A stretch of DNA of 64,000 nucleotides, from NCBI GenBank assembly GCA_051294905.1, contig CM119371.1:30196001-30260000 (forward strand), in the 5' to 3' direction. Origin of the DNA: Botryllus schlosseri (lineage: Eukaryota). A program made the translations under genes and the position numbers. A model generated the notes under the pieces. It worked only from the letters and a program-made list of their open reading frames with translations. It was not told the DNA's origin and did no database searches. Below are positions 9,301 to 59,030 of this stretch, in pieces; within the stretch, counting starts at the first letter, position 1; every line of letters begins with the position of its first letter.

Positions 9301-12300
9301 CATCTGGCTGGAATTACGTTGTACAGGACTACAGGTCTATTCAATGAAATATTTCTGTGATTCATGGTTGTGAGGGGGGTTTATGGTCGTAGTTTGAAAG
9401 CGCAAGTGCCACGTCAGCATGATCTGCGTGAGAGTCACGCTAATTACACCGAGAAATATTTCTAATAGTCATTTTCTAACGAAATCCCACATATGGCTAG
9501 TTGGGGCATTGATGAAATGTTGTGATTGCCAACAACACATTACCGCCGTATATACATTGGCACATTGTCGTCATGCAGAGTCATAGGCTACGTAACAATC
9601 TACATCTACAATAAAGATATAAAACATATAATATTTATTAAACATAAAAAATCAATGGTTTAATTCCAGATTTGCACACAGCTAATGTCCAACTGTTGTA
9701 ACACCTTTTTCATCCAGGCGGTCAGGCCAATTCTGACCAGCTTACCTTCTGCAGTAGAGCCCCGATAGTGGCTACGCCACACGATTGCACTAAATTGTCC
9801 TCGTTGATGTCGTGTCTGCCGACCGTGCCCAGACCGGAGTGGACGATGAAATTTTTCAGCAAGATCAGGAACGCGGCTACGTGATTCTTTTGCAGTTTCA
9901 AATCTGAGCACCGAGAAAGAAAGCCACTTCAAGCGGAAGTAGATACCGAAAGGTCTGAGACCTTCATACATTTTGCAGTTGATCGGGAGTGGGTTCTTTC
10001 AAAATATGAGGGTGCATTTTCCAAAAATACATTTAATTACCATGCCACGGACGCAATTACTACACTCGGTTATGAAAATCCTATCAAACTTTTACAAGTG
10101 AGAAGGTCAAAACAACCGATGGATATAGCCTCCGTGTCATGGTAACAGACTTGTACAAACTACTCAATTATTTAGTTGACTGTCAAGTAACTAACGGCTT
10201 TTCAAGTAGTTCTGGTTCCAGTCGCAGAATTTGAAAAGACCTTAGTTCTAGTTCTACAACTAGAAAACACGTGCCGGTTTACGGGGAAGAAACTAGAAAC
10301 CCCTCCGATTTCCATTTCAAAACACCGTCTTTTTCAGGGGCAACTTTGGACTTAGGTAGCTTTGGACACTAAGCAGTAACAGATTTAAATGGTTATTGAT
10401 GAAAAAGGGTTGCCGCTGGATGTCTAATCCGTTTTCGTGAGGCAACAGTACCAAAAGCAGTCTCACTAAAAGGTGGATTCATTTCACTACCAGATAAACT
10501 TGATCCAACATTGATAAATTAATAGCGGGGGTCAATTTCATAAAATTGATGGCTGTCAAAATTCTTATAATCAAACATAGATAGCATGTGAGTCATAGAT
10601 TCAAAACTTGGTAGCAGATACCTCTTTAAGTAGTCTTAATCCATGGCAAAAATCTCAGTGGGCTCACCCTCAGATCATTATAAGAGAATGCGATGTCCAA
10701 AGTTACCCCGTCAAATGTTATCAGAACGGGGTAACTTCGGACAGTGGAAAATGCGATATTTAGAGCTTTGGAAAGTTGCTGCTTCATCTGTGTCGAAGTG
10801 TAACTTTGAAAAAGGATAATTTACAAAAATAAAGTACTTATTGTTGACCATGAAGATTTTGGATTAGTTAATTCTAATCTTTGTTCCATAACCTCTGAAA
10901 AACACAAAACTTGCCTCCACTACACTCTAGCATTTCGTAGATACAAAGCGAAATTGTTGAAAATTGTCCAAAGTTACCCCGGTTTATGGTACAGTGGTTA
11001 TAGTTCTAGTTGCGAATTTTGAAAATCGCGTGGTTCTAGTACCAGTTACGAGTTTTAAAAAGTGGTTAGCTCTAGTTCTAGTAGCACATTTTGAAAGACT
11101 AGTAGTTTGCACGATGTCATCAACGCAGCATACTTACCGCAAGATTTCGGACTTTCAATCACGACCCACTCCATGTCTTCTCCGAGAGGGGTGTTGGGGG
11201 ATGGTGATAAATCGTCGTCTTGCATTACGTCGCCGTTGGGACTGTGAAAATCGGTTGAATAGTATTGCTATCCTGTCTTTGTTCGTTAGTAGGGCTGTGC
11301 CGTTACAACAGTATGTAGGATGTGAAATGTTCAAATAGATATCACTGCTTGAGTGATATAGAAAGGAATGGCTCGCATTCATAACAATTTCCTCAGTGTT
11401 AACGGTTTCTGGCCCTATTTTCCTAGTATCAGGACTTACAGACGAAACACCAATCATGTGGTGACTTTACTATTCTCGCAAGTTACAATGAAACGTCTGT
11501 CTTGGCCGTCCTAGTCTCGAGTCATATGATTGGGTTAGAGTCATGCACAATGACTCGAATACAAGTCGAGTGAATTCAAGAATTGACTCGAGTCAAGTCG
11601 AGTCGCCAAAAATCACAACCAGCCATTTCTCGAGTCACTACTACCCTGTGTATCACTACATCTGAAGTTAAAAATACCTCGATCAAACACAAGTCTCGAT
11701 ATATCAGTATAGTTTAGATGTCAACCTTGTCGGTTCCAATTCGCCGTTGACCCGTTTGAAGTACATCGTGTTGATTTCTTCGAGCAGGGGAAAAAGAACG
11801 TGAACGCCACCGATTGCGTTTATCGAGTCCTGAAATCATACGCAAGAAACAAATAAAGCACGTCAACCTTTCGCATGGAGGTTGGTATATTCACGTTGAA
11901 ATGACCCCGAATATTTCCGGCTGACACTCGACAGGGGTAATCGTCAGCAACTAGTAGAGAATCGGAAAGAACATTGTCTATCAACAATTGTATCACAAAA
12001 TATGACGTCGCCGGCAGGAAATTTCGAATTATCGGAGCGAAGAGATCACTTAATCATGTAAACAAGCACCTTTTGTTGGCACAAACTTCGTTGGCGTAAT
12101 TTGATCAAAGTCAACTCAAAGGCACACAAATCAAAGTGTGAACGCCCGACGAGAAATCTGTTATCTCGATAATTTTCACAGTTCCACACGTTAAAAAGTA
12201 TTTGAAAAGTGAAGACTCCTATTCGTCGTGACCCTTCCCTGTATCAGAAAGCAAAGAAATTTTCATACCTTTACGTCCCACGTGACGACTTTATGTCCAG

Positions 12301-27300: not shown

Positions 27301-30300
27301 TGCCGGTGAAGGTTTGGGTGTGAGACCAGAATCGCTGAAAAAAATCAGTTTTTAACGATAGAAAATAATGACACAAATTTCGTTGCTGCTTCAAAAGGTT
27401 AATAAGGCATTCACAAAACACGGCGCAATTAAAAACGTCAGTTGAGCATGTAACATTTGAGCATCAGCACAGATGTCAATTGCAACCCGTAGAACACTAT
27501 TAGCATAAAAAATTATTAGGAACTTGAAATTTTTTCAAGTTTCACAAAAAACAAACATGAAATACGTTGGATTGCTTGATTGGATCGATTGGATTGCTTA
27601 GAAACAGCTGCGAAAACAAACTTTGGGTCAATTCCAGTTATAAAAGCAAAATTATTTAAGTCAAAATTTTAGATTTAAAAAAAAAGGTAAAAAGGCGGAA
27701 AATTTCATTATTTATTTACATGTCTCGTTATTTATGACATTATAGTCACCAATTTCCAGTTATGCGCCAAAGAATGGTTGTGGCAGATTGTGGCTCAATG
27801 ATAATAATCACTATGTTGTGAGTGTTACGTCGACTTTTTCCTATAATACAAGTTACCTCTTTCAGTGTAATTGGTGTCAAATCAATTTCAAATATATGTC
27901 AACAAAAGGAGTCAGTGTACCGTCTAAAAATAGTACATTGAACGTTCTCTTATTCGAAATTCCATCCCGGTGACATCACATTTTGTGATACGATTGTTGA
28001 TATACAATGTTCTTCCCAATTCTCTACTAGTTGCTGACGATTACCCCTGACGAGTGTGCGAAAATATTCGGGTTCATTTCAATATGAATATACAATTCAA
28101 TTGTATATTGAAGCTCTGTGCCTCCGGGAAGCTCTTCAAATATACGGCAACAGCTCTCGATTGCCAGCAATTATTCACATTAAGACATGTAAATAAGCAT
28201 TACTTCTCAATGTATAGTAAAATTAAACTATTATATACATACCTAACACTTTGGTCACGACCCTGCAAAGGCACGCGATAATCTTATTGTCATTGCATGA
28301 AGTGAAGATACGTTTCAGAACGCCGGCCAGCCAGATTTGCTGTTCCACCTGCACGAAAGAAAAAATTGAAATCGCTAATCAATTGACACAGAACAAATAT
28401 GAGCATGTTGATCACAAATGAAATTCATTGCAAGCCGAATTTACTTTACGGGCCACGATTTCATGATAGATTGTTCAAAGATATGACAGAGAGAGGAGAG
28501 GGAAGAATTAATTTGAATTGGACCGAGATAGAGCCTACATCAGGGTTGCAATGACTCAAGTCACGATTTTTTGGTTACTCGACTTGACTCGAGTCGTTTT
28601 TTCAAATGCGTAAAATGACTCAACTTGTAGCCCACCCGAGTCATTGTGCATGACTCGAACCAAGTCATAATTATTAAAGTAGAATTGACTTGTGACTCGG
28701 AGCCTTGCGAGTCGGTTGGTTACAACCCTGGCCTATAAAGTTTTGCTCAAAAACAGGTTCAGATCAAGTAGTCCAAAAACAAACATTTTTGTAAGTAAGT
28801 ACGGTAGGCAAAACCTAGTGAAGTAATCCAAAAAAGGCAGAAATGCTCTGCTACTGAACACCTCTGACGATCATAACCAACAGACACTGACCTGTTTGAT
28901 ATCGGGCAGCCATTGCAGGAGCATTAGCACCACGAAAATATTCTTGATCGGCTGAGGATGCTTTAGCAAGACGCGACATTCGACAGCCTACAACGCAGAC
29001 ACAAAAACACGTCTTCGATAAAGAGAGAGTCGTAATAATGATGCGTTGATGCAAGAAATTCAATTCCGAAACGGAATTATTTGAATATTAGAAATATCTA
29101 ACTGCTCGAGTGTCACGAAATTCATAAAAACTGCGTGATTGTTAAGGTTATTATCATCAATAACCTGTGATTTAAAACTAGCCAAAGAACACCACTATTG
29201 ACCAGGCCCAGGCCAGAAGATCTTAATGATAGACGATACGGAATTGAATATTGTTCAGTATATTCATATTAACATGTAATTTAATCGTATATATTCTGTG
29301 CCTCCACAGAGCGTTTCAATATGAAAATACTATCCAATTGTATATTGAAGTTCTGTACCTCCAAGAAGCTAATCAATATATACCAGTGAAAGCATAGGAA
29401 GCCATCATTCTTGCAATCCTAGCCTATTCCTCAAAATGATCGTACAACACAACATGTCAAATTTCTATGACAAATAACCCAAAAAATCATGAGTAGACGC
29501 ATGCGGCGGGAACACAAAACGAAACGCACTAACCATGTTCAAGAACGAGGTAAATATCCGGTTTGTCGGAATGCTCAGCAAACGTACGCGTTCAAACAAG
29601 CAAACGTAACCCAGGCTCTCTTGAAAGTGGTCCTGCCAAAACCGCATGCCGACGTGCAAATGAAATGAGCCACAACACAAGGACGAGGCGCGCATGCATG
29701 AATAAACGGAACGGCATGAAATTCAAATGATGCTGCACGCAAATGAAATTGGAGGCAGTAAACAAGACGCTTTGCAGAGTAGAGTCTAGAGCAGTGGTTC
29801 CCAAACTGCGGCCCACAAGACAATTCGTTTGAGCCGGAAAGCCCCAGGGTTGTAATGTAATGATGACTCGACTCGCGATTTTTTTGGTGACTCGAATTGA
29901 CTCGAGTCATTTTTTCACATCCGTAAAATGACTCGACTCGAGTCAATTTTTGTATTGACTTGACTTGGACTTATGTCATTATTGTGCATGACTCGAACCA
30001 AGTCATACGACTCAAGACTAGGACGGCCAAGACGGACATTACATTGTAACTTCGAAGAATACTAAAGTCCCCACATTATTGGTATTTCGTCTATCAGTCC
30101 TGATACTTGGAAAATAGGGCCAGAAACTGTTAAGACTGAGGAAAATTACTATATTATGAAGGTGAGCTATTCCATATCACTTGAGCATAGTTGAAAAAGC
30201 GGATTGAACTTAGAACTGAACAGTGAACCCAATGACTTGGACTCGGACTCGAGTCAAAACACTATGACTGGACTCGACCCTCTACTAGCTGACTTGGACT

Positions 30301-39300: not shown

Positions 39301-42300
39301 TTTTGTTGAAAGTGGTTGCCACAGATTAATAAAAAGTGGAGAATCAAAGTTTACTAAGCCGAAACAGGCAGACATAGACTAGAAGTAGCCCTCATTGGTA
39401 CCAAGGTAGAAGTATGGTAACGACATAAACTTGTACTCTAGTAAGCCTACAAGTAGAAGCAGCTATTTCAAAGTACGGTATGTTCAACAATATTATAAGT
39501 ATTCTAGACCGCCCTTCTACGTTTTACGCTCAGTAACAAGCCAGTGTTCCCCATGACACATAAATGTTTCCCGTGAACATGTCAAAATTTACAAATGTCA
39601 AAATAGATTATTTAGAGCGAAACAGTAAATTGTTTCAATTCCTTGGCCCCAGAATTGGCCAATTAGACAGTTAGCCTACATTGGTTCTCTAGGATCACCG
39701 AAGCGCAGAATATTGATTTTAAAGATTTTTCACATATAGCGACACCTGGTGACGGGAAAATTCTAAATCGCATCATCTTTTGAACCGTTGAAAATTTTAC
39801 AAAAAAATTTTTTATCACAATTCTGAGGATATGCATTACAGCCCTTGCTAAGTTATAACGGAGTTAGCCTCATCTCGAATTCCTAATTGCAAAAGATAAG
39901 TAGTTTGGTTGAAAATCTGTAGAAGTTGGAGTAGCCCACTGTAAAACATTGCCACTTGGGAATGTAGTGCAAATAGACACATGGGCTACATAACCTACTC
40001 GAGTGCCATACCCTGAAAAAGTACAAGTTTTTCGTTACTATAAATCTCTGTAAACAATATCCCCATTTTTAGGCTTATTCGTCATCGAATCATATTCTCA
40101 CCCCATCATCCTTCTTCTCCAGGAATGTTCGGGATCGTAGAGGCATTCGCAGAGGTGAATCGCGTGATGCACAAACAGCTCGAGCTTTTGAAGTATTTTG
40201 GCGTCTTCGTAGTTGCCGTCTGTTATCTGAGTCGCAAAAAAGAATGGTTAGCACGACTGCACGAGTCTTCTATCGGTCGGCTTGGTTACGGGAGGGATTT
40301 CGGCACTGCAATGCCATTTAAAACAGTGGTTCTCAACCGCTTGTACAACAAATTTATTTCAATGTTATCTCACAATTGCCAAATGCAATAACTTTAACGC
40401 AAGTAATGTCATTGGTTACAAAAATATACCACCAAACTTAAAATTGATTTAGATATTTGGAATGCGTTTTTTACATCATGTCCTATCATATATAGCGTTC
40501 ACAGCAGGGTTGTAAACAAGTCACAGGGCTCCGAGTCACAAGTCAATCTCACTTTTATAGTTTTGACTTGAGTCAAGTCGAGTCATTTACAATTCATCAC
40601 CTAGTCAAGTCCGAGTCCAAGTCAGCGACCAGAGGGTCGAGTCCGAATCATGGTATTATGACTCGAGTCCGAGTCCAAGTCATTGTGATTCCAGTTAAAA
40701 TCTTGTTAAACCCACTTTTTATAACTCTGTTAGGTGATATCGAATGGTTTTCATTCAAAATATACCAATTTTCCTCACTTTCTGGTCGCATTTCCAAGTA
40801 CCAGTACCAATTGACGAAATCCCAGTAGTGTGGTTACTCTACTATTCTTCGAAATTACAATGAAATGTCGGTCTTGGCAGTCTGTGTCTCGAGTCATACG
40901 ACTTGGTTCGAGCCGTGCGTAATGACTCGAGTACAAGCCGAGTCAATAAATAGATTGACTCGAGTCGAGTCATTTCCGCATTATGAAAAAATGACTGGAG
41001 TCAAGTCGAGTCGTCAGAAATCGTGACTCGAGCCGGACTCGAGTCATTGCAACCCTGGTTCATAGTCTACTTTAGCCTAAGCGTATGTCGAAAGAAGACC
41101 ATAAACTTAATGACAAAAAGTGATAAAAAATTTTTGTATAAAATTCGCAAGGCTGTAATGACTCGAGTCAAGACTCGAACTCCGATTTTTAGTAGACTCC
41201 ACTCGACTCGAGTCAAATTATGTACGACTCGGCACATTCTATATGACTTATTCCAGTTTCGTATGTCATGACCGGCAATATCTGTTTGAATAAACATGTT
41301 CAGAGTGAGAAAAATGAGTAGGCCTTACATTATAAATCCGAGACCATCGATATCAACCGAGAGTGATATAATAATTCTTCTCGGACTTAACAACGACTCG
41401 ACTCGATTCGACTCGAGTCAATACGGTAAAAATCAAATGGACTTGTGACTCGGAACCTCAATTGTTTACAAGCCTGGACATTTGGCAGTTTAAGCTAACA
41501 AACAGCAAAGTCGCAGTTCTTTTAAAATAATTGAAGAATATCAAGCGGGTTTGTGATTGCAACAGGATTTCAAAGCATAGAACTTCAATATAACCACAAT
41601 GAACATCAAAAAGGCAGCAGACACAACACAACCTTACAATCTGCAATCGCTGATCAACAGTGCACTGGACTTCAAAGGACTTACAATTTGAACGACGGCC
41701 GTCGCGATATTCAGAACGAGCCCGACCAAACTTGCGGAAGACAGAAGCTTCAAGTTTTCGTGGTTCCTGAAACGCAGCTCATTAAAAAGACGAAACCAGC
41801 AAGTGCTTTATTGAGGACACCCATAATTCACACGCACAGAACTATTGACAATACCATCTTCCCGCAGGCTTGTCTAAAACTACAAATCAAGCTAGTTGAT
41901 GTTCAACTAAGGAACTGTTTTTTCAAGTACTTCTAGTGCAGTGGTTCCCAACCTTTTTGTCTTCACTCCCCACTTCAGATTTATTCCAAGTCTTCATTCC
42001 CCACTACCAAAAACTCCTACATACCCTTTAAAATAGGGTCATCCTATTTTGAGATCCTAAAAAGGAGACGCTTTTTTTTAATTCTGAAAGCTCCGAGAAA
42101 ACTTGTGATTTTGAAATTTTTTCGACCGATAGTATTGTGCTCACTAAAGAAAGGGTCATCACTTTGTTTCAGCTCCGGATTTTTTAGGAAATCCTGATGT
42201 TCGGCGCGTTGGAGTTGCATTTTTGGTGGCATTCAAATCCTTTTCAGAGAAAAAGAGGACGAATTCCCAAAAAGAGGGCATTTAGGCGTCCTCCGAGGGC

Positions 42301-45300
42301 ACTTTCATTTATAATTTTCGATACACACATTCCAGAGCAGTTAACTGGTAACGGTAATTGCGCATGTGTCTCCGTAAATATGTAGACTATCCTGTATATA
42401 ATGTTTGTTCCCCACCAGAAACCATTGAATTCCCCACCGGTTGGGAACCAATGTTCTTGTTCAAGTTGTGTACTTTGAAATGTGAGTAGTTCTAGTTCTA
42501 GTTGCGGATCTAAAAAATATTTAGATCCCGAACAACTAGAATACAAGCGCATCGCAGTTTGGCGTGAATCATGATACCTGTATTGGCATTTTGTCGTGTG
42601 ACATCCCTGCAGCCCTTACGAGCTCAGAGTCATCACTACCAACAGTGATGGGGTGGGATTAGGGTGTGGAAACGCCTCCCATTTCCAACTCTTATTCATG
42701 TTATGTGGTAAGCTGACATGATTTCGGTAAAATGAAAATCATTATGTTGGTTAGGATTCGAATGTAGTTAGTTATGCTTTGGTTAATTCTAGTTGTGAAT
42801 TCTAAAAACTGAGTAGTTCTAGTTGTAGTTGCACATTTTGAAAACCCAGTAGTTTGTCACACTGTGCCTTGTTCACTATATATCATTCAATCCTAGTACC
42901 ATAACACCGAACACTATCAATGACCTCTGCCGTTTGCATTTACACTCATAACGGAAAGCGATATCCATATTTTCAAATGAAGCTGCATTATTAGGAAGCG
43001 CATCTGCGCGTGAAAATAATCATCCTTTACATGTAATAAATGTCTGAACAAATGAGAGTATAGGCAAAACACGAGGATGGCATAGAAGTATTTCTACTTC
43101 AGGTCTATTTCCGTTCTAAGCTACACCACTCATTTAGGCCACACTTCTTTTGTACTATATTGATGGAATATTTGAATAACACTTTCTGAAAGACCCATCT
43201 CAGACTGAGCCAAGCTCTGAAGTTATCTGCAACCATGGAAGACTCTCTATGATCGCCATTTCTCCAACAGATAAACAGATTATAATCAATGGAAAAATTA
43301 TTGTTCACTGCCCAATGGCCACAAATTATGTTATTTTCCATCTACAAGGTAATAGTTTCAAACTAGCGAAGGTATAGATTTTTGTCAGAATTTTAAAAAT
43401 TTCGCGTACAATTTGATGCAGCCGTGTTGGATGGCAATGTCGCAATGGCACTCAACAAATTGAGCATACAAAATATCAAGTAGGAATTTGAATAGACTCT
43501 TGGAGGTGCAGAAACGCAATATAAAATTGCATTAAATTCATATTGAAATAAGCCCTAAGATTTTCAGCTAAAACTCCTCAATCGTCAGCAACTAGTAGCG
43601 AAATAAAAATAACACGGTATCTCAGCAATCACATAAAAATTGTAGCTTACAGAGTTGGCAGATACAAATACAAAGGCCTACCTAATCCCAACTTCAAACC
43701 ATTTGCTACCCGAACGACATTTACAAATGTAACTACGTGACTTTGGACCCCACCAAGTGCACATTCCAACCTATTCAGGAATTGAGCATTACAAATAACA
43801 ATAACAAAACTATTACAAGCTTTCTTACTGAGGCCCGCTTCACTGCTTCGATGCATTCAAAACAAACATGCGTGCAAATGTAACATACCGTGGAAACCAA
43901 ATTATACATGTAGGCCTACCCTATATCCTTTACCATTACCACACTATTATTAGGCCTACCACAAACTACTATTACAGATATTTGTATGGATTTGATATCA
44001 CAGAACTTACTTGCAAATAATAACCAATGTCTTCACAAGGTTTGTCGCGTAGACCACCTTTTCCACCTTGAATTTGGAATTATCGGGAGATATCGCCGAA
44101 GTTTTGCAATAATCGTGTATGCCCATTAGCTGCCTGCTTGCGGCCTGTGAAAAAGTTAAAGATTAGATTCTAGTAGGTTAAATTCACACATACATATAAT
44201 TCATAATTAAAACTAACTTGTAGGAACTGGTCCGGTAAATCAGACAGCTTCGGAGGTCCAAGGTCGATCTCGGAGTCTTTCGGGTTTTGCAGCAGGCTGA
44301 CCGGAGCAGATACCGATCTTGGTTTCGTGGGTGTGGATTTTCCATTCTGTAAACGAAATTCCCATTGCATTGAGCACGTCGGTAGGCTGTGGAGGCACAA
44401 GTTCACACAAACTCTAGCTGTTAATGGCCGGACAGCTAAAATCAGGCATGCCGCTAACATTCGAGTCACATCAATATACCTACCATATTCTTTCGAATCA
44501 TAATTTTCTCTGGTAACCACAAATATTAAGATATTGTGACTTTCTTCCAGAATGCAATAGCGTGTTTCACCTGTGCATTTCATACTTGTGTCATACGATA
44601 AGCGTGTTATTACTGAAGCGTTATGTGTGCTTCTAAAGCTACACTTTTGGCAGAATACTTGATGAAACCGAAAGACTTTTCGTGGGCTTCTTATCGAGAG
44701 TTTACAACACACAAGCTTAGAAATGAAGCAGCTGGAATATTGGTGGCGAAACACCAAGTCTGAAAAATGATAGCTGGGCTTGCTACTGTGGCTGTGACTA
44801 CACAATAGCGAAAATTAGGACCCATCTAAGAAGTAGAGGTAATTTGTTACCGACAAAGCTCTGATGATGACATGAAATTGGATTTTTGTCCCCATCAATG
44901 TAAGGACAAAACCAAGATATGCACTTGACTGCATACTGTACGCGAACCTCAGAAACTTGCACAATGTATTGCGGGCTAGTGACTCTCCCAAACAAATGAT
45001 TGAGTTTGGGTAGCCTTGTTGATTTCATACCGTAAAGAGCACTGAGCAGCTCACATATAAACAAGGATCTGAAAATTCACTTTCTGCATGCAAAACAAAA
45101 GTTATTTTATGTACAGGTGACCCTAAATGGCCTACATTAGTACATTATTATCATTTGTCTTTGTAATACCATGGGAATCCATAGATTTCTAGCATTTCCA
45201 GGAGACTATACCTCAGAAGATAATGGGCAAGGAACATACTTTACGCCCTACACTTGGAATGAATGATTGAAACTAATTTTAATAATTGTAATCCTGGCGT

Positions 45301-48300
45301 GCCAGATCAGGTAGGCTGGGTCCTGGGCTACAGCCATCCATGTGATACCTTGCAATCATAGTCTTGAATTCAAAACTGCAATATCCTTAGCCGCCTAATG
45401 AGGGGTTTCATTTTAATTTGAACTTGTAGCCTACTTGTTAATCAATAGAATGGGAATCATGGTATAATCGTATCTAGTACGCAATAGAACAGCGAGGATC
45501 ATGGGCCACAGCAACATTTTCTGGGAGAACAACTAGTGAGGGAGTTGAACTAACAGCTAAATTTATGAATTTAAATTTATGATAATTCTTAGAGAGTCCA
45601 CTGCTACCAATTCTAGCTCTATTTGATAAAGCCAATGAAATTCCACATTCCATTCCACACCACTACACAACTCGAGCCAGTCACACAAGCATAGCCAAGC
45701 TGATAATCCAACAACAAGGCTGATAATCCAACAACAAGGTTGACCCTCCATATTGGTTTGGCCTAGTAATTACCATACTTGGTCTGAAAATAGCAGGCTA
45801 GAAACAGATCCAATTCACATCAGAATACTCCTGATAATTTTCAGTTGGTCACGATTTATTGTCATAGATGAACAAGATTTGAAAATGTCTAGCCTTTTCC
45901 CACCCCAAACTACAAGACTTTGATTGTACAATGCAAAACTTCAGGTTCTCAAATCAGCAAAAATTAGATCCATATTATGAAATTGATTTTTAAGTTCTGA
46001 GTAAAATTGAAATGTACGCAAACGGAAGACTTACATCACTGTTGTTGTTTATAGAGCCAAATACAGTGTTGCATTCTATCAATTTCTTTGCCATGCTCCC
46101 AAATTGATATAAGTTGTGGCATTTTGTGTCACATTGATAAGTATATTTAGTTGAAATTCCATCATTGTAGGGAGGACAATTATAGTTACAATAATGGACC
46201 CATGTCAAACTGAAACTGTGCACAATAAATATGCATGACAGTTTCAAACTGGAAGATAAAAACCTGGAAGATATAAAACGGTATGAGATTACCTCTATAT
46301 TGTTTCTTCCAGACTTCGAGGAGATATCAAGCAGTTCGAACTTCAGATCTATGACGCTTTCGTAGACATGAGCGAATTCTTCAACATAACGTTGCAGGTA
46401 CTGAGGCTCTTTCTAAACGAAGGAGAATGAAATTTTATCAACCGCAGAGATTGATCACCACTATAGAATGCCTCAAAGTATTGACTTCGAATTTCTAATC
46501 GAAAACCTGTCACAATTTCCGAGCAAACTTGTTGACAATTCGTATCTTAAAAATCTTTTAATATATATAAGTTCGCAAAATTGGCAGCAATCTCACAACA
46601 CAAATGCGATGATAGTTATGCTACTATATCGTGTATATATAAATTTGAATTTTGAAAATGGGGGTCCATCTGGTGTATATCGCAAGGTCAATTACAAAAG
46701 AAATTCAGTTAGTTTGTCTGAAAGACAATAACAAAAAGGACCCGCCTCTCATTGTGGAGTGATATTCAGCAAAGACCAAACACTGTAGCCATGCTGTCCT
46801 GTGAATACAACTTCCCCAGTTAAAAAGCATCCTCAGATGTAATCAACATCAGGCCCCAGTACAAACCCAAGATTTAGCAAGGGAAACATAATTCTCGAAG
46901 CCTTGCCAATTTCCGACATCAAAATTTAATAGTGCACGTGACAGGCCAACTGAATAGTCAGGTCTATTTTTAACCTGCCTGATCATTGATGAAGCATTTT
47001 CACGTAAGGGTAATCCCCAATACAGGTGATATCTAGGGCAAATTTTTGTTGCACCAAAATCGCGAGGAAGTTGCACTTGAAAGTTGCAATAATAATTGTG
47101 CATTTAGGATTTTATAGCCCCACAGTTTCAGATTCACATCTGTGAAATGTGTCCGTGAAATGAGAACTACCATAAGTACCTATAATTTAACCGACAGAGA
47201 ATTAATCAAACGATATAGTTACATATAGTCCAAACACGGTCGTTCGACGTTCGTGCCCGGCTGGGGGTAGTTGAACTTACAGCTTGCAAGCCATTGCATC
47301 ACAGATAACATTGAGATGCAGCTCACCCATCACATGACTCTTTGTTATGTAAATCAAAGAGAATAGAACCACGACAATAGTTTATAGCATGTTTTTAAAT
47401 CACTCCTTCGCAGTTTGCGCAATATTTGATGAATGTTGCATTGAAAATTTGCATGAAAAAAGCTGCAATAAAATTACTGCAAACAGCTTAAAACATCATA
47501 CTGCATGAATTTCGAGTATCTCAAAAGCTGCCAAGTTGCAAAAACTTGCCCTGGTGACTACAATTATCACATTCATATTCTTATAGCAAAATGGTTGTTG
47601 TAATAATATTAATAGTGAAACAATAGCTTGGGAGATGTATTTCCACCTCTGCACAAACAAAATATTATTGTGCTGTAGTTGGTGTCATAGTTTGTAGGCC
47701 GCGCCAACCAGTTGAGAAAAGGAAGTATCAATCAGACCAAGCTTGGCTGTGGCTGCATCACTGCAATTTCCTTTCCTGCTCATCAGTGATTCATATTCAC
47801 AAACCACCGATTTCGGATAGCACTTTCAACTCGCTATAACACACAGTACACGTGGACAATTAGATAATTCTGGCAATTTAATTCAAATCTAAATTCGGAA
47901 ATTTTCTATCAACTCATTTTAATTCTAATCTGATATTGGGTTTTCCTGAAAATGCATCAGAACTGTATCGTGCGAAAACGGGTCAAGCTTTCTGTACAGA
48001 CATTCGCGACCATCAGGCTTATTAAAATGAACTCCGATATTCAATAGCCTATCAGCTGAACTTAATTCAATTACCAAGTTTCCGCATGCTGGTAGTCAGT
48101 AATTCTAATATAATTTGTGATACAGAATGTAAACATGGAATGGCAACGACCGATGTTGCAGCATCGTTCCGCTTCGCTGAGGCTGTATTTGAGAACTGTT
48201 TTGCGTAAGCGACTGTAGGCTTTCTGGCAATCCAAAAGTTTTCTTCCACAGTGCAGAATTTACTGAATCTGGTATTGATCAAAAGCTACGGTTGCACTGA

Positions 48301-50264
48301 TTCCGAAAATATAAATTAGAATATGGCCAGGCTCCAGACTTAAAAGAAAATTCACCCTGAACATCTGAAATGTGCATTGTTCAGAACAATCAGATAATTT
48401 GAAGAGACTCTTTGGGGTACAGAACTTTAATATACATTTCAATAAAATATTCATAGTAAAATATATTAAAACCCGAAGCAGGAACATCAAACAACATGTT
48501 CCTAGCGTTATTAGATCACGCACATTGGACTCTCGCGAAGACGCAGCCGTAACTGATCTGCAATTACTAGAACGTAATCAGACCATGGCTATGAACTCTG
48601 CCATCGGCAAGCATTTGGCTGAGAATGCAACTTGCGCTAAAAACTATCGCGATGAAAGATTTTCTATATATTAGGTAGATGCCGCACTAATTTCCATCTG
48701 TCTGCACTGGAATCAACTTATATTAAAATCCACCGACCCCACTTGTGTCAGCAGAAGGAATTTTTAGTGAATCTAAAAATTGGCCAATAGCTGCGCTCGC
48801 GGTTTGCCTGTTTTTCATGTTGTTTGTTTCTATGATGTCATAGTCGGTTGTATGCAATGTAGCTAGATGCATGTTTTTGAAATTCTCCATTTGCTGACGA
48901 TTGCCCTTGAAAAGTGTCAGCTCGAAAAGCTTTGGGTTTTAATATATTTTACTATGAATATATTATTAAAATGTAAATCAGAAAATTGCAAAACAATGAC
49001 CATAACATATTTCGGACTTGGAGGGCTTATTCTAAGTGGATCAGTGCCTGATCATATTTAAATTTATATTTTCGAAATCGGAACGACAGTAGCTTTCGAT
49101 CAAGACCAGATTCAGTAAATTCTGTGCTCTGGAAGATAATTTTTGGATTGACAGAAATCCTACAGTCGCTTACGCAAAACAGTGCTCAAATACAGCCTCA
49201 GCGAAGCGGAACGAGGCTGCAAAATCGGTCGTTGCCATTCGATGTTTACATTCTATAATTTGGGAAGATCTGTGTGGGCAAGCTATAATTCTAGTACAAT
49301 TCAGGAAGAACCGTGTTACTATAATTCTAATATAATTTGGGAAGAATTGTGTAGCTCTAATTCAAATATATATAATTTGGGAAGAACTGTGTAGCTATAT
49401 TTCTAATTCTAATCTGCTTTGGTAAAACTGCATTCTAACTATTATAATTCTAATTTTCGATTTGTTCTAGTGCCTCGTGAATATCATGAAGATGTTGGTA
49501 AAAATGATAAAATAAAATAAAACATATATACCGTAATATAATATCGATTAGATAAATGAAAATGACCATCACATTCTCTGTCTCTCACCATTTTCATCAC
49601 TCTCTGTGAAATACTAGATATATATTTATGAAGACCAGCAACTTCGAGTTCTAAATAGCTGGTTCTTGGTACAGAATTCCATCACAAATTCCATTGACAC
49701 GTTTTTTTTAAACTCTCAAGACTTTTCAGGTGCGTCTTTTCAAGCCTTATCAGCACACTATAATGGAATTCAAACAGATTCAAAAGTAAAACCAATATGG
49801 CAAGGTATGACTTGCCAATCAAAATTGCAGACCGTGAAATTCGCAATGTAAAAGTGGCAGCAACAAATTTTGAAGTATAAGGTAGGACTACTATAATAGG
49901 CAACAACTTACTACCGCAGAATCACCATAATGATATAGTGTATGATATGACGAGCATTATCAACAAAAATGACGTTAATTAACCTACAAAATCAATTCAA
50001 AAAACTTGGACAGCAACAAATGACAAAAAAACTTGGATACCGTACCGGGTATGGGTAGTCAACGCTATAGTGTCTAGTACGGTATGCTGTAAAATTTAGA
50101 CTTAAAATGGTACAGTTATAGGCTACTGTGAAATAGTTGGTTAGGACCTATTCATTTGAACAATCACATTAGGTTAGTGTTTATTAGATTCTGGAATGAA
50201 CGAATTGACATACCTTAATCGCGTACAATGTCCAGAGCTCATACAGATGATCGGTACTTCCCAT
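226..50264 (-). CDS. NBEAL1: Neurobeachin-like protein (NBEAL1/NBEAL2 orthologue), 5' portion: 38 coding exons, about 1517 aa, continues beyond the left edge
   Basis: Manual splicing of GT-AG exons with consistent phases gives one open frame. It is colinear with recalled vertebrate NBEAL1/2 motifs: LYELWTLY, CECLYDP..WRRR, PFFY, GSQRNAL, LLQWLP, GFSFHAWLCL, GMEAF, KRPFG, GQLGSV, YYAAKAC, GHKVVTWDVKDSINAIGG..VLFPLLE, GVATIGALLQK, YQYLLFDFRIW, RIGHIQYL..FRKKYGVQ. Assignment to NBEAL1 versus NBEAL2 is not resolvable. Confidence 0.95.
492..577 (-). CDS. NBEAL1: NBEAL exon 37 SEDAGTVSDS...HSVDK (acceptor uncertain: 577, 605 or 620)
   Basis: Donor GTAAGG is clear; the acceptor ttccctgcctag at 577 fits the incoming phase 2. 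Confidence 0.75.
1150..1990. repeat. Degenerate tandem-like repeat (gagttcatacaagctcacacggttattcaactcgcgttcaag units)
   Basis: Recurrent gttcaag/ctcacaa/aggttat motifs with longer duplicated blocks. Confidence 0.7.
2164..2234 (-). CDS. NBEAL1: NBEAL exon 36 DVVTRLLVKK...SISI
   Basis: cag/GTGAGA, 71 nt, phase 0-2. Confidence 0.9.
2486..2634 (-). CDS. NBEAL1: NBEAL exon 35 LGAGAFL...SVRRD...LPGWQ
   Basis: tag/GTAATC, 149 nt, phase 1-0; joins exon 36 as the GWQDV motif. Confidence 0.9.
2840..3125. repeat. Degenerate tandem array of about 32 bp (agttctagttctagttgcga.ttttgaaaa)
   Basis: Repeated unit; related arrays at about 10200-10260, 10990-11105 and 42455-42855. Confidence 0.75.
4894..5053 (-). 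CDS. NBEAL1: NBEAL exon 34 LLTRLLKTEFVYDKNK...VVEI
   Basis: tag/GTGGGT, 160 nt, phase 0-1. Confidence 0.88.
5245..5860. repeat. Minisatellite with unit of about 21-22 bp (actcaatgccaagggccacaa)
   Basis: More than 20 diverged units directly visible. Confidence 0.85.
5888..6043 (-). CDS. NBEAL1: NBEAL exon 33 LSECFDLL...LLFEHGKADILY...KACK
   Basis: cag/GTAAGA, 156 nt, phase 0-0. Confidence 0.92.
6065..6615. mobile_element. Cluster of Penelope-derived hammerhead-bearing short repeats in inverted arrangement
   Basis: Units at about 6065-6260 and 6400-6615 share ctactagttgctgacgattacccctgacgagtgtcagccgaaaatattcgggttcatttcaatatg; related copies at about 1-190, 11885-11990, 14410-14510, 23625-23680, 27990-28140, 32385-32480, 35960-36030, 36320-36490 and 43495-43600. 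Confidence 0.8.
6095..6128 (-). ncRNA. Minimal type-I hammerhead ribozyme motif, intact, sense to the NBEAL pre-mRNA
   Basis: Minus strand reads ACCC-CUGACGA-GUGUCAGCC-GAAA-AUAU-UC-GGGU. Confidence 0.72.
6841..6997 (-). CDS. NBEAL1: NBEAL exon 32 SADPNLSADD...IRSSLLGLVK...EETQ
   Basis: cag/GTGGGT, 157 nt, phase 2-0. Confidence 0.92.
7150..7657. mobile_element. MITE with imperfect terminal inverted repeats of about 100 bp
   Basis: About 7150-7252 is the reverse complement of about 7547-7657. Confidence 0.7.
7748..7885 (-). CDS. NBEAL1: NBEAL exon 31 IWSRSEFLVRIGHIQYL...FRKKYGVQYMLD...YY
   Basis: tag/GTGAGT, 138 nt, phase 2-2; highly conserved. Confidence 0.95.
8083..8213 (-). CDS. NBEAL1: NBEAL exon 30 MPTELID...IYQYLLFDF
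   Basis: aag/GTAAGA, 131 nt, phase 0-2. Confidence 0.94.
9746..9903 (-). CDS. NBEAL1: NBEAL exon 29 LKLQKNHVAAFL...GVATIGALLQK
   Basis: cag/GTAAGC, 158 nt, phase 1-0. Confidence 0.94.
10335..10988. mobile_element. Deleted, inverted copy of the pogo/Tc1-like MITE at 24660-25958
   Basis: Long homology to about 25520-25945 and 24660-24830; terminal gtccaaagttaccccggtttatgg followed by TA. Confidence 0.8.
11138..11241 (-). CDS. NBEAL1: NBEAL exon 28 PNGD...MEWVVIESPKSC
   Basis: cag/GTAAGT, 104 nt, phase 2-1. Confidence 0.88.
11726..11829 (-). CDS. NBEAL1: NBEAL exon 27 DSINAIGGVHVLFPLLEE...EPT
   Basis: cag/GTTGAC, 104 nt, phase 0-2; IGG..VLFPL motif. Confidence 0.92.
12269..12447 (-). CDS. 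NBEAL1: NBEAL exon 26 PDKN...YYAAKAC...GHKVVTWDVK
   Basis: cag/GTATGA, 179 nt, phase 1-0. Confidence 0.95.
12796..13494. mobile_element. hAT (Charlie-like) MITE
   Basis: TIR agtggttcccaacc / ggttgggaaccactg; perfect 8-bp TSD GCTAATCC at 12788-12795 and 13495-13502. Confidence 0.9.
14025..14185 (-). CDS. NBEAL1: NBEAL exon 25 NVES...AGMQDDTWGRAVSLRGQLGSV...QVKALNSA
   Basis: tag/GTAATG, 161 nt, phase 2-1. Confidence 0.92.
14873..15514. mobile_element. Foldback/Mutator-like MITE with TIRs of about 150 bp
   Basis: agggttgtcctaaatttggaaaatctc... mirrored at the right end; atgtatatt on both flanks; partial second copy at about 36688-37200. Confidence 0.8.
16168..16209 (-). CDS. NBEAL1: NBEAL exon 24, candidate 42-nt microexon KVKNLLTPNTSPQ
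   Basis: tttctttag/GTACAC, open in phase 2-2. Confidence 0.55.
17559..19256. mobile_element. Non-autonomous hAT element
   Basis: 16-bp TIR CATAGGCGCTGAACTC; perfect 8-bp TSD GTAGACAC at 17551-17558 and 19257-19264. Confidence 0.92.
19296..19421 (+). pseudogene. hAT-type transposase C-terminal remnant in an older host element (about 17228-19723)
   Basis: Translates PTQTTAAVERSFSILGKLLSKDRHFLPENVGKYLSLYYNKF*, a TS..VERSFS-like dimerisation motif; second copy at about 30982-32254. Confidence 0.7.
19796..19906 (-). CDS. NBEAL1: NBEAL exon 23 (symmetric) RFSFNIPSPR...GIASEA
   Basis: cag/GTAAGT, 111 nt, open in phase 2-2; GC content like the other exons. Confidence 0.75.
21223..21315 (-). CDS. 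NBEAL1: NBEAL exon 22 (symmetric, possibly alternative) ASFEQFIHAK...YDPLK
   Basis: cag/GTAACG, 93 nt, open in phase 2-2; no recalled homology. Confidence 0.65.
21902..22069 (-). CDS. NBEAL1: NBEAL exon 21 CPNLGETFTNCHIGSAGLRT...PVTPS
   Basis: cag/GTATTT, 168 nt, phase 2-2; C.IGSAG.RT motif. Confidence 0.92.
22962..23065 (-). CDS. NBEAL1: NBEAL exon 20 HCLDIVHHPAKRPFG...VYVDG...TLR
   Basis: cag/GTGGGT, 104 nt, phase 0-2. Confidence 0.93.
23397..23526 (-). CDS. NBEAL1: NBEAL exon 19 FFSQNGTGMEAFF...IAVCNKK...DNKW
   Basis: cag/GTGATT, 130 nt, phase 2-0. Confidence 0.93.
24450..24571 (-). CDS. NBEAL1: NBEAL exon 18 GITVPGIRKWGGSGFSFHAWLCL...RRQLY (start of ConA-like domain)
   Basis: cag/GTACGG, 122 nt, phase 0-2. 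Confidence 0.93.
24660..25958. mobile_element. Tc1/mariner-pogo-like MITE
   Basis: TIR C(C/T)GTAAACCGGGGTAACTTTGGAC with TA on both flanks; internal TIR-like repeats. Confidence 0.9.
26044..26148 (-). CDS. NBEAL1: NBEAL exon 17 NPYFGR...AMARK...FFDLQDSTS
   Basis: cag/GTAAGA, 105 nt, phase 0-0. Confidence 0.92.
27183..27334 (-). CDS. NBEAL1: NBEAL exon 16 ILVSHP...TLGTYS...LLRQDSNQHKHL
   Basis: ttcag/GTGAGA, 152 nt, phase 1-0. Confidence 0.9.
28043..28073 (+). ncRNA. Minimal type-I hammerhead ribozyme motif with shortened loop II
   Basis: ACCC-CUGACGA-GUGUGC-GAAA-AUAU-UC-GGGU. Confidence 0.68.
28243..28348 (-). CDS. NBEAL1: NBEAL exon 15 VEQQIWLAGVLKRIF...TKVL
   Basis: cag/GTATGT, 106 nt, phase 0-1. 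Confidence 0.9.
28892..28987 (-). CDS. NBEAL1: NBEAL exon 14 AVEC...LLQWLPDIKQ
   Basis: tag/GTCAGT, 96 nt, phase 0-0. Confidence 0.92.
29534..29632 (-). CDS. NBEAL1: NBEAL exon 13 DHFQESLGY...FLNM
   Basis: cag/GTTAGT, 99 nt, phase 0-0. Confidence 0.9.
29792..30365. mobile_element. hAT/Charlie-like MITE containing a nested GACTCGAGTC-family insertion
   Basis: cagtggttcccaa ... ttgggagccactg; flanks gtctagag/gtctacaa. Confidence 0.75.
30870..30955 (-). CDS. NBEAL1: NBEAL exon 12 TPSEE...TALVAGSMSAK
   Basis: cag/GTAAGG, 86 nt, phase 1-0. Confidence 0.9.
31217..32032. mobile_element. pogo/Tigger-like MITE
   Basis: TIR ccgtaatttt / aaaattacgg with TA TSD; inserted in a second copy of the hAT-remnant element. 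Confidence 0.85.
32571..32681 (-). CDS. NBEAL1: NBEAL exon 11 FIPEFLNTLDRPALQ...GCFDQL...YCP
   Basis: aag/GTTTGT, 111 nt, phase 1-1; DRP.LQ motif. Confidence 0.88.
33758..33848 (-). CDS. NBEAL1: NBEAL exon 10 RQVSVTEVLNKYFSLL...QMI
   Basis: cag/GTAAGT, 91 nt, phase 0-1. Confidence 0.9.
34106..34310 (-). CDS. NBEAL1: NBEAL exon 9 FLSRYMG...VHVLHGAGPDQ
   Basis: cag/GTGTGT, 205 nt, phase 2-0. Confidence 0.9.
34724..35570. mobile_element. pogo/Tigger-like MITE, second copy
   Basis: Homologous to 31217-32032; TA flanks. Confidence 0.85.
35748..35886 (-). CDS. NBEAL1: NBEAL exon 8 TLQ...LHMFGALLCGSQRNALL...DILL
   Basis: cag/GTAACG, 139 nt, phase 1-2; the frame differs from the ORF-track call here. 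Confidence 0.92.
36057..36127 (-). CDS. NBEAL1: NBEAL exon 7 AEMNL...DIIPFFY
   Basis: tag/GTAAGA, 71 nt, phase 2-1. Confidence 0.9.
40102..40226 (-). CDS. NBEAL1: NBEAL exon 6 ITDG...CECLYDPEHSWRRRMM
   Basis: cag/GTGAGA, 125 nt, phase 0-2; conserved E.LYDP..WR motif. Confidence 0.92.
40505..41057. mobile_element. hAT MITE rich in GACTCGAGTC palindromes (most complete copy of an abundant family)
   Basis: TIR CAGGGTTG(T/C)AA; 8-bp TSD gttcacag/gttcatag; other copies at about 11390-11647, 22537-22905, 26590-27104, 28541-28730, 29846-30300, 32862-33375, 38388-38800, 41150-41475 and 59040-59252. Confidence 0.9.
41685..41766 (-). CDS. NBEAL1: NBEAL exon 5 NHENLKLL...AVVQI
   Basis: tttcag/GTAAGT, 82 nt, phase 2-0. 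Confidence 0.88.
41939..42453. mobile_element. hAT/Charlie-like MITE
   Basis: cagtggttcccaacc ... ggttgggaaccaatg; imperfect 8-bp TSD. Confidence 0.75.
44011..44144 (-). CDS. NBEAL1: NBEAL exon 4 AASRQL...LVKTLVIIC
   Basis: cag/GTAAGT, 134 nt, phase 0-2; follows a 73-nt intron. Confidence 0.9.
44218..44346 (-). CDS. NBEAL1: NBEAL exon 3 NGKSTP...LSDLPDQFLQ
   Basis: cag/GTTAGT, 129 nt, phase 0-0. Confidence 0.88.
46293..46412 (-). CDS. NBEAL1: NBEAL exon 2 KEPQYLQRYVEEF...GRNNIE
   Basis: tag/GTAAT, 120 nt, phase 0-0. Confidence 0.9.
48433..48975 (+). mobile_element. 5'-truncated Penelope-like retroelement: GIY-YIG endonuclease C-terminus, 3' UTR with degenerate hammerhead, and an inverted 3'-end copy at the 5' junction
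   Basis: Translation IKQHVPSVIR...SAIGKHLAENATCAKNY..FSI, a 2-nt frameshift, then LGRCRTNFHLSALESTYIKIHRPHLCQQKEF..stop at 48790; 48433-48479 is the reverse complement of about 48929-48975. Confidence 0.85.
49255..49420. repeat. Tandem repeat of about 36 bp, about 4 copies
   Basis: tataattctaatataatttgggaagaactgtgtagc units. Confidence 0.8.
50214..50264 (-). CDS. NBEAL1: NBEAL exon 1 (start codon) MGSTDHLYELWTLYAIK
   Basis: ATG at 50264 in aaaATGG context; 51 nt; donor GTATGT; resembles the NBEAL1/2 N-terminus. Confidence 0.92.
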
Positions 50265-54031: not shown

Positions 54032-54192
54032 ATGAAAAGTAATGCAGAGAATATAAGACGCAAGCTTGTGTTGATATCGAATGGTTCGCATTATTATAAT
54101 ATAGGTCTACTAATTTTCCTCGTTAGCAGTTTCTGGTCGCATTTTCAAGTACCCAGTACCAATAGATAAAATCCCAATAGTTTGGTTATTCT

Positions 54193-57124: not shown

Positions 57125-57815
57125 GTGGCGCTCCGTGCCACCTCCTCCCAGATGAGAAATCAGCATGACTCTAGTGTCGCAGCCAGCAGGTCAACTGGCA
57201 CGCCTTCGCCCGATCTCTCCCGAATCGTCAAATGTAGCAAATGTGGCAATGTCATGAAGAAGTATAAATTCTTGCATGGGAAGTTTGGTAAGCCGAGGTT
57301 GCGCGACTTTAAACAATGTCTAGCCTGCTGGACCATTGATCTTTTGGTCTCCCCCCCGGCAAGCCGATTATGCCCAGTTCAATAACCAGCGTCCAAAAAT
57401 ATCACCAAAGAAGATAAAGGCGATATCGGACACTGGTGCACAATCATCCTTGATGGGATTGAAACTGTTTCGAGCATGCGGCTTCAAAGACCAGCATCTC
57501 ATCCCGGTGAAGAAACGCATGGTTGCAGCTAATGATGAGTGTATCCACATCCTGGGCGCTGTGTTTCTGCAACTTTCGGGTGCAGCAGTTTCTGGCGATG
57601 TCATAGAAACCGCTGAGATGGTATACATTACGGATGCTACGAAACTATTCTACTTTAGTTGAGATGCCATGCAGAAGTTGGGCATCATTGGGCCCGATTT
57701 TCCTCAAATTGGGGCAGCGGCACACCACGCGACACGAGAGTCAACCCTTGAGGGTAACACGCATCAAACATGTAGCTGCCCACGGAGGTCCACGCCTCCT
57801 CCACGCCCTCGGCAA
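57125..57815 (+). mobile_element. Ty3/gypsy LTR-retrotransposon gag-protease remnant
   Basis: Aspartic protease motif AISDTGAQSS, then AAN..I.ILGA.F, LGII..DFP and CSCPRR..PPP; contains a stop and a frameshift. Confidence 0.8.
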
Positions 57816-58049
57816 CTGGCCAGCGATATTCCATGTTTGTGTTGTTGTTATTCACACATATACAGTGGCGCTTATTGCCTATAAGGTCCTTTGCCTTTGT
57901 AATGTTTTGGACGACTTCCATTCTCGCTCTCTTCCATGATCGGTCACGCTCGTTTTTCGTGCGCCCATATCTTGCACTGTGCTGCCGACTTTCGGCTCGG
58001 CTCACCTTCACTCTGCTCTGGGCATTGGAAACACTGCTACTGCAGTGAT

Positions 58050-58175
58050 GTCAGCGATGAGGCGCCCAGAGAAACCTCCGACTGAGTCCGACACATAGTA
58101 CTTGGGACGAACCGGGATTCGAACCACTGCCATTGGTGTCGTGACGCTGGTGTTTAACCAACTCGCTTCCCCACC
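58050..58175 (-). mobile_element. tRNA-derived SINE head
   Basis: Minus strand has an A-box-like AAGCGAGTTGG and B-box GGTTCGAATCC; no cloverleaf acceptor stem. Confidence 0.7.
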
Positions 58176-58304: not shown

Positions 58305-59030
58305 TTTAGGACGCCGAATCTCTTCAGCAGCGACTTGTTTGATGGGCAACCAGGCCCCTTTGTGACCCTAGCTATGATTCGGAGTACTTTATGCTGTAGT
58401 TTTGCAGTGGCTTGAGTGCAATTTTACTGGCAGCCCCCAAACAAAGGATGCCATAATCTAACTTCGATTGGATTAAGGATTTAAAGAGTATCAGAAGAAC
58501 CCATGCTGGCATGAAGCGCCTATAAGGCTGTAGAACAGGCCGCACTTCGGTGATGATTTAGTGTCTAGGGACTGAATATGACTCTTCCAGGACATGTTCG
58601 AGTCCATTAAAACCCCGACATATTTGGCATTATCTGTGTTGGAAACGGGCTGACCAGCGATATTAACGGTTAGGTTATTTTTTGAATTTACTGTCTGCAA
58701 TTGGGATTTCGAAGCGTTTATGCAAAGGTTGTTCTGGGCCGTTCACTCATGGACTTTGGGCATTTGGTCACTAGTCAGGGCATCCAGCTCTGCCGTCGAA
58801 GATGCGGAAGAAAGGAGGTGAGTATCATCAGCGAACAGTGGTGTTCAATGAGGAGGCTTCAAAAATGTCGTTGACATGTAGGGTGAAGAGGACCGGTCCA
58901 AGTACTGAGCCTTGGGGTACACCACAGGTCACCAGCTGAGGAGAGGACAAGGTGTTTGAGATCGCAACCATTTGTTGGCGTCCAGTGAGGTAACTTTTCA
59001 TAAGCTCAAGCTGTGGGCCCCGAAGTCCGC
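58305..59030 (-). mobile_element. L2/Crack/CR1-type LINE reverse transcriptase remnant
   Basis: SYLTGRQQMV..CGVPQGSVLGPVLF..VND, frameshift, FADDT; KYVGVLMDSNMSWKSHI; LDYGIL; multiple frameshifts. Confidence 0.9.

Follow-up and report, generated by a model that had tools for sequence, protein, structure and literature searches.

A 5'-truncated Penelope-like insertion of Botryllus schlosseri whose ends point to uncleaved RNA, and its predicted pseudoknotted hammerhead ribozyme

Penelope-like elements (PLEs) carry hammerhead ribozymes, and a small insertion in Botryllus schlosseri raises the question of whether ribozyme cleavage sets the ends of new copies and whether the ribozyme is still able to cut. 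The insertion lies in a stretch of 64,000 nucleotides (nt), here called the window (assembly GCA_051294905.1, contig CM119371.1, positions 30,196,001 to 30,260,000), and is a 576-bp PLE copy, 5'-truncated and frameshifted, flanked by a 12-bp target-site duplication (TSD). An earlier note on this DNA, made from the letters alone, had described a Penelope GIY-YIG endonuclease fragment with a hammerhead in its 3' untranslated region (UTR), judged the ribozyme core to be dead, and proposed that cleavage defines the element ends. We consider it probable that the insertion arose when both nicked strands of the target primed on uncleaved element RNA, and that the hammerhead in its pseudo-long terminal repeat (pLTR), predicted to be pseudoknotted, would cut only as a dimer. 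Coordinates of the features are given in Table 1.

The identity of the element was examined through its peptide. The endonuclease piece is split over two frames by a frameshift near 48665; the contigs of the family lack two letters there, so the frameshift is private to the window copy. None of the three window peptide pieces matched Pfam GIY-YIG by itself, because the GIY and YIG motifs were lost by truncation, and a word-indexed protein search with a 66-residue piece scored none of its 18 candidates. An exhaustive phmmer search with the window peptide gave 20 matches, of which 18 aligned to both window frames and cover the C-terminal half of the GIY-YIG domain. Pfam GIY-YIG was found in four of five scanned matches, exceeding the curated cutoff in two; a sixth scanned match (P0003) proved unrelated. 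A profile built from 12 matches led to 75 longer proteins, most with precomputed reverse transcriptase (RT) domains, and RVT_1 was present in all five of these relatives that were rescanned, the window copy itself being without RT. The full-length protein P0030, which joins RT and endonuclease (EN), aligned to both window frames (E 3e-18). The window fragment retains both histidine motifs and the C-terminus of a CCHH-type GIY-YIG endonuclease; the cysteines and the GIY and YIG motifs, truncated here, are present in P0030 and in the relative locus L007. A motif scan of these two relatives found the marks of Penelope/Poseidon elements, namely DKG, CCHH and an RT-EN linker free of a CX2-5CxxC finger. 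Judged by its sequence, the element is an endonuclease-positive PLE, as the earlier note held, with its stop at 48790 as read before; its probable placement in the Penelope/Poseidon clade rests on the motifs of the relatives and not on a tree with reference elements.

Relatives were taken from the best 80 of 225 confirmed metagenome loci and from three genome-contig loci. A single family, found in several assemblies with common insertions, accounts for most of the 80. An exact DNA pattern search of metagenome contigs gave no match, and none of 12 candidates among viral contigs was confirmed. The earlier note had made its reading depend on full-length elements carrying the hammerhead motif, and L007 does so: its 864-codon open frame holds RT and EN in one open reading frame (ORF), with a ribozyme immediately upstream.

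The letters at 48891-48937 agree one by one with those reported before and hold all elements of a type I core, that is, a 3:8 pair, U4, G5, A6, A9, G12, A13, A14, A15.1-U16.1, H17 and stems I to III, with U3:A8 and U17. Rfam reported no hammerhead in the window (three matches at E<=1, none of them a hammerhead). An upstream CUGACGA (48894-48900) was considered as the true core or as a non-circular permutation (PMC10085705) and was rejected, as by eye its flanks form neither stem I nor stem II. The stretch TTGAAAA reads U3-U4-G5-A6-A7-A8-A9, which is the U3:A8 covariant of C3:G8. This pair occurs naturally in schistosome PLE hammerheads (PMC4209133) and is reported to be active in vitro (PMC3088659, section 8); a literature search for data on the C3U/G8A double change found none. 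A8 was the majority letter in all four sequencing runs aligned to the window copy, with 55% of depth in X1 (G 12205/27306), 69% in X14 (G 261/843), 73 of 103 reads in X21 (G 30/103) and 9 of 17 in X23 (G 8/17), counts that such an alignment biases toward the window copy's own letters. Locus L001 likewise has U3:A8. The 52 copies parsed from the other metagenome loci comprise 41 with U3-G8, nine with C3:G8, one with U3:A8 and one with U3/U8, a tally in which near-duplicate assemblies may be counted twice. U17 is private to the window copy (C in 29727/30389 depth) and yet is the usual letter in the relative metagenome family. The earlier verdict of a mutated, probably dead core finds no support in the reported in vitro activity of U3:A8 or in the majority of A8 in four of four runs, and the window core is likely still able to cut. 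As an observation in its own right, the U3-G8 wobble (41/52 copies, L002-L080) is the predicted intermediate from C3:G8 to U3:A8, and it occurs at family-level frequency.

The unusual part of the ribozyme is stem II, which the earlier note, correct in placing a hammerhead in the pLTR, had left unparsed. Downstream of the core stand one G, a loop of 7-8 nt, one C and GAAA. A local hairpin helix II of 7-8 bp is absent: only G10.1-C11.1 can pair, and the core-plus-loop segment was computed at -0.1 kcal/mol. Loop II is complementary over 7 bp to 48893-48899, located 5' of stem I. We predict that stem II is the single G10.1-C11.1 pair and that the loop pairs over 7 bp with the strand 5' of stem I to form a pseudoknot. 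The partner strand lies 2 nt from stem I in the window copy and 1-3 nt from it in the parsed copies, a range set by the search pattern. When 13 copies were aligned, 94.5% of 220 cells were paired, with 97.8% for the pseudoknot helix and 26-41% for slid controls. Two-sided changes were seen at the outer pseudoknot pair (GC/UA), at 3:8 (CG/UA, plus UG) and at the palindrome centre (GC/UA). The distant L082 family, which scores only 14-18 bits against the model, has by eye a 6-bp helix, and its stem I and palindrome are kept although the letters differ. A competing hairpin that folds the core onto the loop was computed at -5.1 kcal/mol in a family of short repeats dispersed in the window and at -0.1 kcal/mol in the window copy; U3:A8 is predicted to retain the core pair while abolishing this hairpin. 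No description of a pseudoknotted PLE hammerhead was found in the literature searched, which excluded Lunse et al. 2017, the figures of PMC4209133 and one supplement, and the variant is apparently undescribed in PLEs so far.

Stem III is a palindrome of six letters. The window copy, L001, L081 and L082 all carry AAGCUU, as do at least 44 of 52 copies from another family; AAUAUU is the form found in the short repeats. The self-duplex of AAGCUU was computed at -4.3 kcal/mol. The change between the two palindromes had been taken as covariation in support of a dimer model. The palindrome is indeed kept, which fits the published model of dimers joined through a short palindromic stem III (PMC4209133), but the change is a single evolutionary event and so provides no test. 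A further observation on the core concerns a subfamily with U at 11.1 (G10.1-U11.1), seen in L007 (235-330) and L081 (3676-3727). In L007, U11.1 makes an in-frame ATG inside the ribozyme and the usual post-cut ATG is lost; the start codon of L007 may have moved into the ribozyme.

Among competing explanations, the likeliest, though an unlikely one in our estimate, is that the ribozyme is weak or vestigial and that the conserved helix works at the ORF start in binding a protein, as a promoter or in translation. Several observations weigh on that side and against a cutting ribozyme. The U3-G8 wobble in 41 of 52 relative-family copies, where U17 is usual, could mean relaxed selection on catalysis; G10.1-U11.1 in L007 and L081 gives L007 its in-frame ATG; published PLE hammerheads are slow to cut; and no pile-up of read ends was present anywhere along the stretch, and cleavage was not seen. 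The bias of the read alignment belongs here too, as does the fact that position 3 is not among the 40 of 118 differences that were listed, so that U3 and A8 may not travel together in the family. Five of the seven pseudoknot pairs are invariant in the 13-row alignment, whose rows are related, which makes it weak evidence alone. Monomer folding z-scores were unremarkable in five copies (+0.93 to -1.82), which is expected because the folding program cannot score a pseudoknot. What speaks against a vestigial ribozyme is that G5, A9, G10.1, A14, A15.1 and U16.1 are invariant in the same 13 rows, that 3:8 is pairable in 12 of them, and that two-sided changes occur in stem I and in the palindrome.

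The way in which the copy was inserted can be read from its layout. The inverted copy at the 5' junction is real, since 48430-48479 matched 48929-48978 over 50 nt with 92% identity (blastn, E 9e-15), but the extent first given for it, 48433-48479, was too short, as the arm reaches 48400 with a tail. Both outer ends fall inside the ORF start, the right one 22 nt in and the left one about 55 nt in. An empty-site joint (48387->48976) was found in one X1 contig, and related empty forms in X14 and X23. The TSD ends are ATT on both strands, like the preferred cut motif of PAc, an Anolis Poseidon element (Frangieh et al. 2024, PMC11167929), a likeness that carries little weight where the DNA is AT-rich. 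X1 depth jumps from 18949 to 50044 at 48792, the start of the pLTR, and the depth summed over contigs climbs from about 6,000 at the element's 5' end to 35,000-50,000 over the pLTR, with about 40 in the right flank; depth is not a copy number, and this profile fits a large 5'-truncated family. The structure is that described for PLEs in PMC3846280 and PMC8557442, with an inverted pLTR, a tail, duplications of 8-10 bp and a microhomology junction. The insertion is an ordinary truncated one, and this copy of the element is itself dead.

In the mechanism that we favour, the target would be nicked at staggered positions 12 bp apart, and each 3' end would prime in the ORF start of uncleaved element RNA. 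One nick would yield a complementary DNA (cDNA) of about 500 nt from a first internal start site, and the other an 80-nt cDNA from a second. The long and short cDNAs would join via the GC microhomology, and repair would give the TSD. In the RNA, the 7-bp pseudoknot helix is predicted to take the place that a 7-8 bp helix II has in the published PLE hammerheads, and the 6-nt palindrome to form stem III between two RNAs. Cleavage, if any, would likely take place when two RNAs pair, at a step other than the setting of insertion ends.

The inverted arm could instead have come from self-priming by fold-back, with an antisense strand as the template (Arkhipova et al. 2013), or from later DNA repair, an origin to which we assign a small but real chance. 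Fold-back was put forward in PMC3846280 because palindromes occur at inverted junctions, and the window arm does end in the palindromic loop. The two arms, however, do not share a start site, one ending 22 nt into the ORF and the other 55 nt, so that the short arm holds sequence absent from the long arm; a clean duplication stands outside both, and extension of both strands has been reported in vitro (PMC11167929).

The window arm ends within a few bases of the predicted cut, as noted earlier, and it does so 3-5 nt upstream of it: TTC is unambiguous, and the direct copy also begins with GC. TTC is explained only by uncleaved RNA. Sixteen inverted arms were collected, comprising six in the window, nine distinct insertions among the 80 loci and one in L082. 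No inner breakpoint was at or past the cut; three were up to 7 nt upstream, four broke inside the ribozyme at 8-34 nt, and nine, at 76-299 nt, had traversed the entire ribozyme. A sensitive search for shorter inverted arms among the 80 loci found no further ones. In the relative family, 45 non-reference outer ends past the cut fell at 20-33 nt (23 ends), 56-60 nt (18 ends), 40 nt (one end) and 67-68 nt (three ends). Counted from the ORF start, the two clusters lie at 17-30 and 53-57 nt, in agreement with the 22 and 55 nt of the window copy. These results do not support the proposal that cleavage defines element ends.

That cleavage sets the ends of the inverted arms is, in our judgement, quite improbable. 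The three arms ending within 7 nt of the cut would suit it, as would the Watson-Crick 3:8 pairs of the window families, the family that mostly reads through being mainly U3-G8. None of the 16 arms starts at the cut, though, and the TTC of the window arm fits uncleaved RNA rather than the direct copy. The inverted arm of L082, with an intact C3:G8 core, still extends 243 nt past the cut, and PAc ribozyme mutants insert normally in vitro (PMC11167929). Some facts nevertheless count against priming on uncleaved RNA. In all six window arms the breakpoint falls within the ribozyme. Two near-cut arms (L022 and the one at 32424 in the window) have only 1-2 unambiguous upstream nt, and a cleaved template is possible there; one unpaired window copy starts 7 nt past the cut (29314); and the polymerase could cross a nick tracelessly. 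Picking the relative loci by the length of their endonuclease match favours long arms. The empty site is known from one contig, which may be a paralog, and no read or contig piece from the sequencing runs compared with the window crosses the whole insertion.

Transcribed copies of the family were seen in the single-cell run X21, in which sense-strand family reads stood at about 170 vs 4-17 over the pLTR. Over 48336-49044 this run contains family copies that have lost the ribozyme core (43 reads, with a loose end before 48946) and copies whose 5' end is at 48875 (65 reads). The sense reads were rejected as evidence for this locus, since only 8 of 725 are 99% alike. The fall of X21 depth near the cut was likewise rejected as a sign of cleavage: read ends do not pile up, and the 65 loose-end reads at 48875 could partly explain it.

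The short repeats of the window are colinear with the window ribozyme, as first noted, with 48875-48975 matching 6158-6063 at 76% over 103 columns (blastn, E 5e-12). Because two copies retain an endonuclease end of their own (Table 1), we read the short repeats as truncated copies of a sister coding family. Of four tails that were translated, three code for a similar ORF start and one is decayed; most copies in the window consist of the pLTR only, and they are dispersed, not tandem. The element had been proposed to identify the autonomous source of these repeats, which stands at the level of class but not for the window copy's own family. It is very improbable that the repeats are non-autonomous (retrozyme- or short interspersed nuclear element-like) and mobilised by the window copy's family, as the prevalence of pLTR-only copies and a preprint deriving animal retrozymes from pLTRs (10.64898/2026.07.22.740005) might suggest, since two copies have their own endonuclease end, the tails encode their own ORF start, and dispersed copies with coding remnants are not the non-coding tandem hammerhead repeats of a non-LTR retrozyme (LTR, long terminal repeat). 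Separately, a short-repeat pair at window positions 1-200 has about 27 nt between its arms, part of them inverted upstream pLTR sequence, which suggests that an internal stretch was deleted or that the template was switched one more time.

Table 1. Positions of the insertion, its ribozyme and other repeats in the window
Feature	Positions	Strand	Remarks
Type I hammerhead	48902..48938	+	stem I 48903-48906/48934-48937; core 48907-48913; cut predicted 48933/48934
Hammerhead letters	G10.1 48914; loop II 48915-48922; C11.1 48923; GAAA 48924-48927	+	window sequence
Palindromic stem III AAGCTT	48927-48932	+	then H17 = U17 at 48933, GGG from 48934
Pseudoknot helix, 5' strand	48893..48899	+	pairs with 48915-48921 in loop II; predicted
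Left TSD	48388..48399	+	12 bp; 11/12 match right copy
Right TSD	48976..48987	+	12 bp; pair-wise match to left copy and empty-site joint
Inverted 5' arm	48400..48479	-	3-5 nt preceding predicted cut, stem I 3' strand, ~55 nt of ORF start
Tail within inverted arm	~55 nt of ORF start	-	peptide MNILLKCILKFCTPKSLFK, like N-termini of full-length RT-EN ORFs
GC microhomology (2 nt), inverted arm/direct copy junction	48478..48479	.	loose-end consensus of family contigs before 48485 vs window letters
GIY-YIG endonuclease, C-terminal half, 5'-truncated, frameshifted near 48665	48478..48790	+	stop 48788-48790
pLTR = 3' UTR with ribozyme, then first 22 nt of ORF from ATG 48954	48791..48975	+	X1 depth step
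Host inverted repeat, 212 nt, like a miniature inverted-repeat transposable element	left arm 48121..48332, right arm 49046-49257	.	arms 89% complementary; PLE inserted inside
Longest sister-family copy	11880..12204	-	own endonuclease C-terminus (12204-12049, tblastn E 8e-11) upstream of pLTR
Second sister-family copy	27894..28140	+	endonuclease end (27894-27938, E 0.01), pLTR, tail
GACTCGAGTC-rich repeat copies	11345-11614, 22534-22909, 26586-27109, 28541-28731, 29837-30311		
GACTCGAGTC-rich repeat copies, continued	32862-33373, 38384-38805, 40505-41477, 54069-54192, 59034-59260		

Other repeats were found around the insertion. The host inverted repeat that contains the PLE has a related copy at about 7250-7526, and tandem units of 36-41 nt follow its right arm at 49253-49407. 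A second abundant family, of about 500 bp and about ten copies, is rich in GACTCGAGTC palindromes and is the source of two of the three weak Rfam matches, which are to microRNAs. The repeat copies at 10337-10986 and 24663-25949 share about 90% identity in opposite orientation, one being interrupted by about 630 bp. Open frames at 57324-58050 and 58831-60365 look, by eye, like an LTR-retrotransposon protease region and remnants of a non-LTR RT. Among the relatives, L081, L082 and L083 are animal-type PLE insertions in contigs filed as bacterial metagenome-assembled genomes (one contig is 836 kb); these contigs are probably DNA of the host that was binned along with symbionts. L082 and L083, spaced 6.4 kb apart on a shared contig, are identical to each other. 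In L062-L065, at about 2870-4075, an inverted RT block (residues 233-601 of P0031) adjoins a direct endonuclease fragment; we regard it as an internal, L1-style 5' inversion and not as an inverted pLTR.

The window insertion itself is ordinary genomic debris. What it may tell about its kind is wider. The genomic ends agree with a single in vitro study, that of PAc (PMC11167929), in that they come from two internal start sites and that the inserted template was mostly uncut. The predicted pseudoknot may let this PLE hammerhead cut at a much higher rate than the slow ones assayed until now, and the three natural states of the core pair (C3:G8, U3-G8 and U3:A8) are ready-made controls. Rfam and descriptors of stem II miss such motifs, an annotation blind spot in which, if the prediction is true, they are undercounted. 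Only tentatively do we go further and suggest an animal Penelope clade with an undescribed hybrid hammerhead, invisible to Rfam, that combines a one-pair stem II, a 7-bp pseudoknot, palindrome-gated dimer cutting and a family-tuned 3:8 pair (C:G, U-G or U:A), and in which ribozyme activity sets the length of the inverted cDNA.

Compared with the endonuclease-positive Penelope/Poseidon elements (Arkhipova et al. 2013, PMC3846280; Craig et al. 2021, PMC8557442), the insertion shares the C-terminal GIY-YIG domain, a pLTR with the ORF start, the inverted 5' pLTR, a one-armed tail, a short duplication, a microhomology junction and strong 5' truncation, and no structural difference was found from the elements as described in the available text of these papers. 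One-pair stem II with a pseudoknot in place of helix II is known from microbial hammerheads (PMC3088659; PMC11300833), of which one example with a 1-bp stem II cut at >1.2 per min in 0.5 mM Mg2+. The window ribozyme resembles them in the single G10.1-C11.1 pair and in a loop that is predicted, from pairing and covariation, to be held in a pseudoknot helix of 6-7 bp. It differs from the tested 1-bp example (Perreault et al. 2011, PMC3088659), a metagenomic type II ribozyme, in being type I. The crystallised pseudoknotted hammerhead (Zhan et al. 2024, PMC11300833) needs helix IV, whose loop holds the partner strand, and an A-rich linker to helix I; here 2 nt leave no room for either. Neither of these hammerheads, as far as the available text of the two papers goes, relies on a palindromic dimer. 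The minimal PLE hammerheads (Cervera and de la Pena 2014, PMC4209133), variants that lack helix III or tertiary loop-loop contacts (PMC7761336), are like the window ribozyme in being type I, in a stem I of 4-5 bp and a tiny palindromic stem III, in G10.1-C11.1, in the natural U3:A8 variant and in location in the pLTR; theirs has a 7-8 bp helix II, whereas one pair and a 7-bp helix with an upstream strand are predicted here. PAc, finally, begins its ORF at stem II and starts reverse transcription 111-118 nt into it, whereas the ATG here is 21 nt past the cut and the ends are about 22 and 55 nt into the ORF. In vitro, PAc cuts and extends both strands, prefers ATT, uses two internal RT start sites and inserts unchanged with mutant ribozymes (PMC11167929), and the window copy is like it in its two putative internal start sites of reverse transcription in the ORF start, which would produce the tail.

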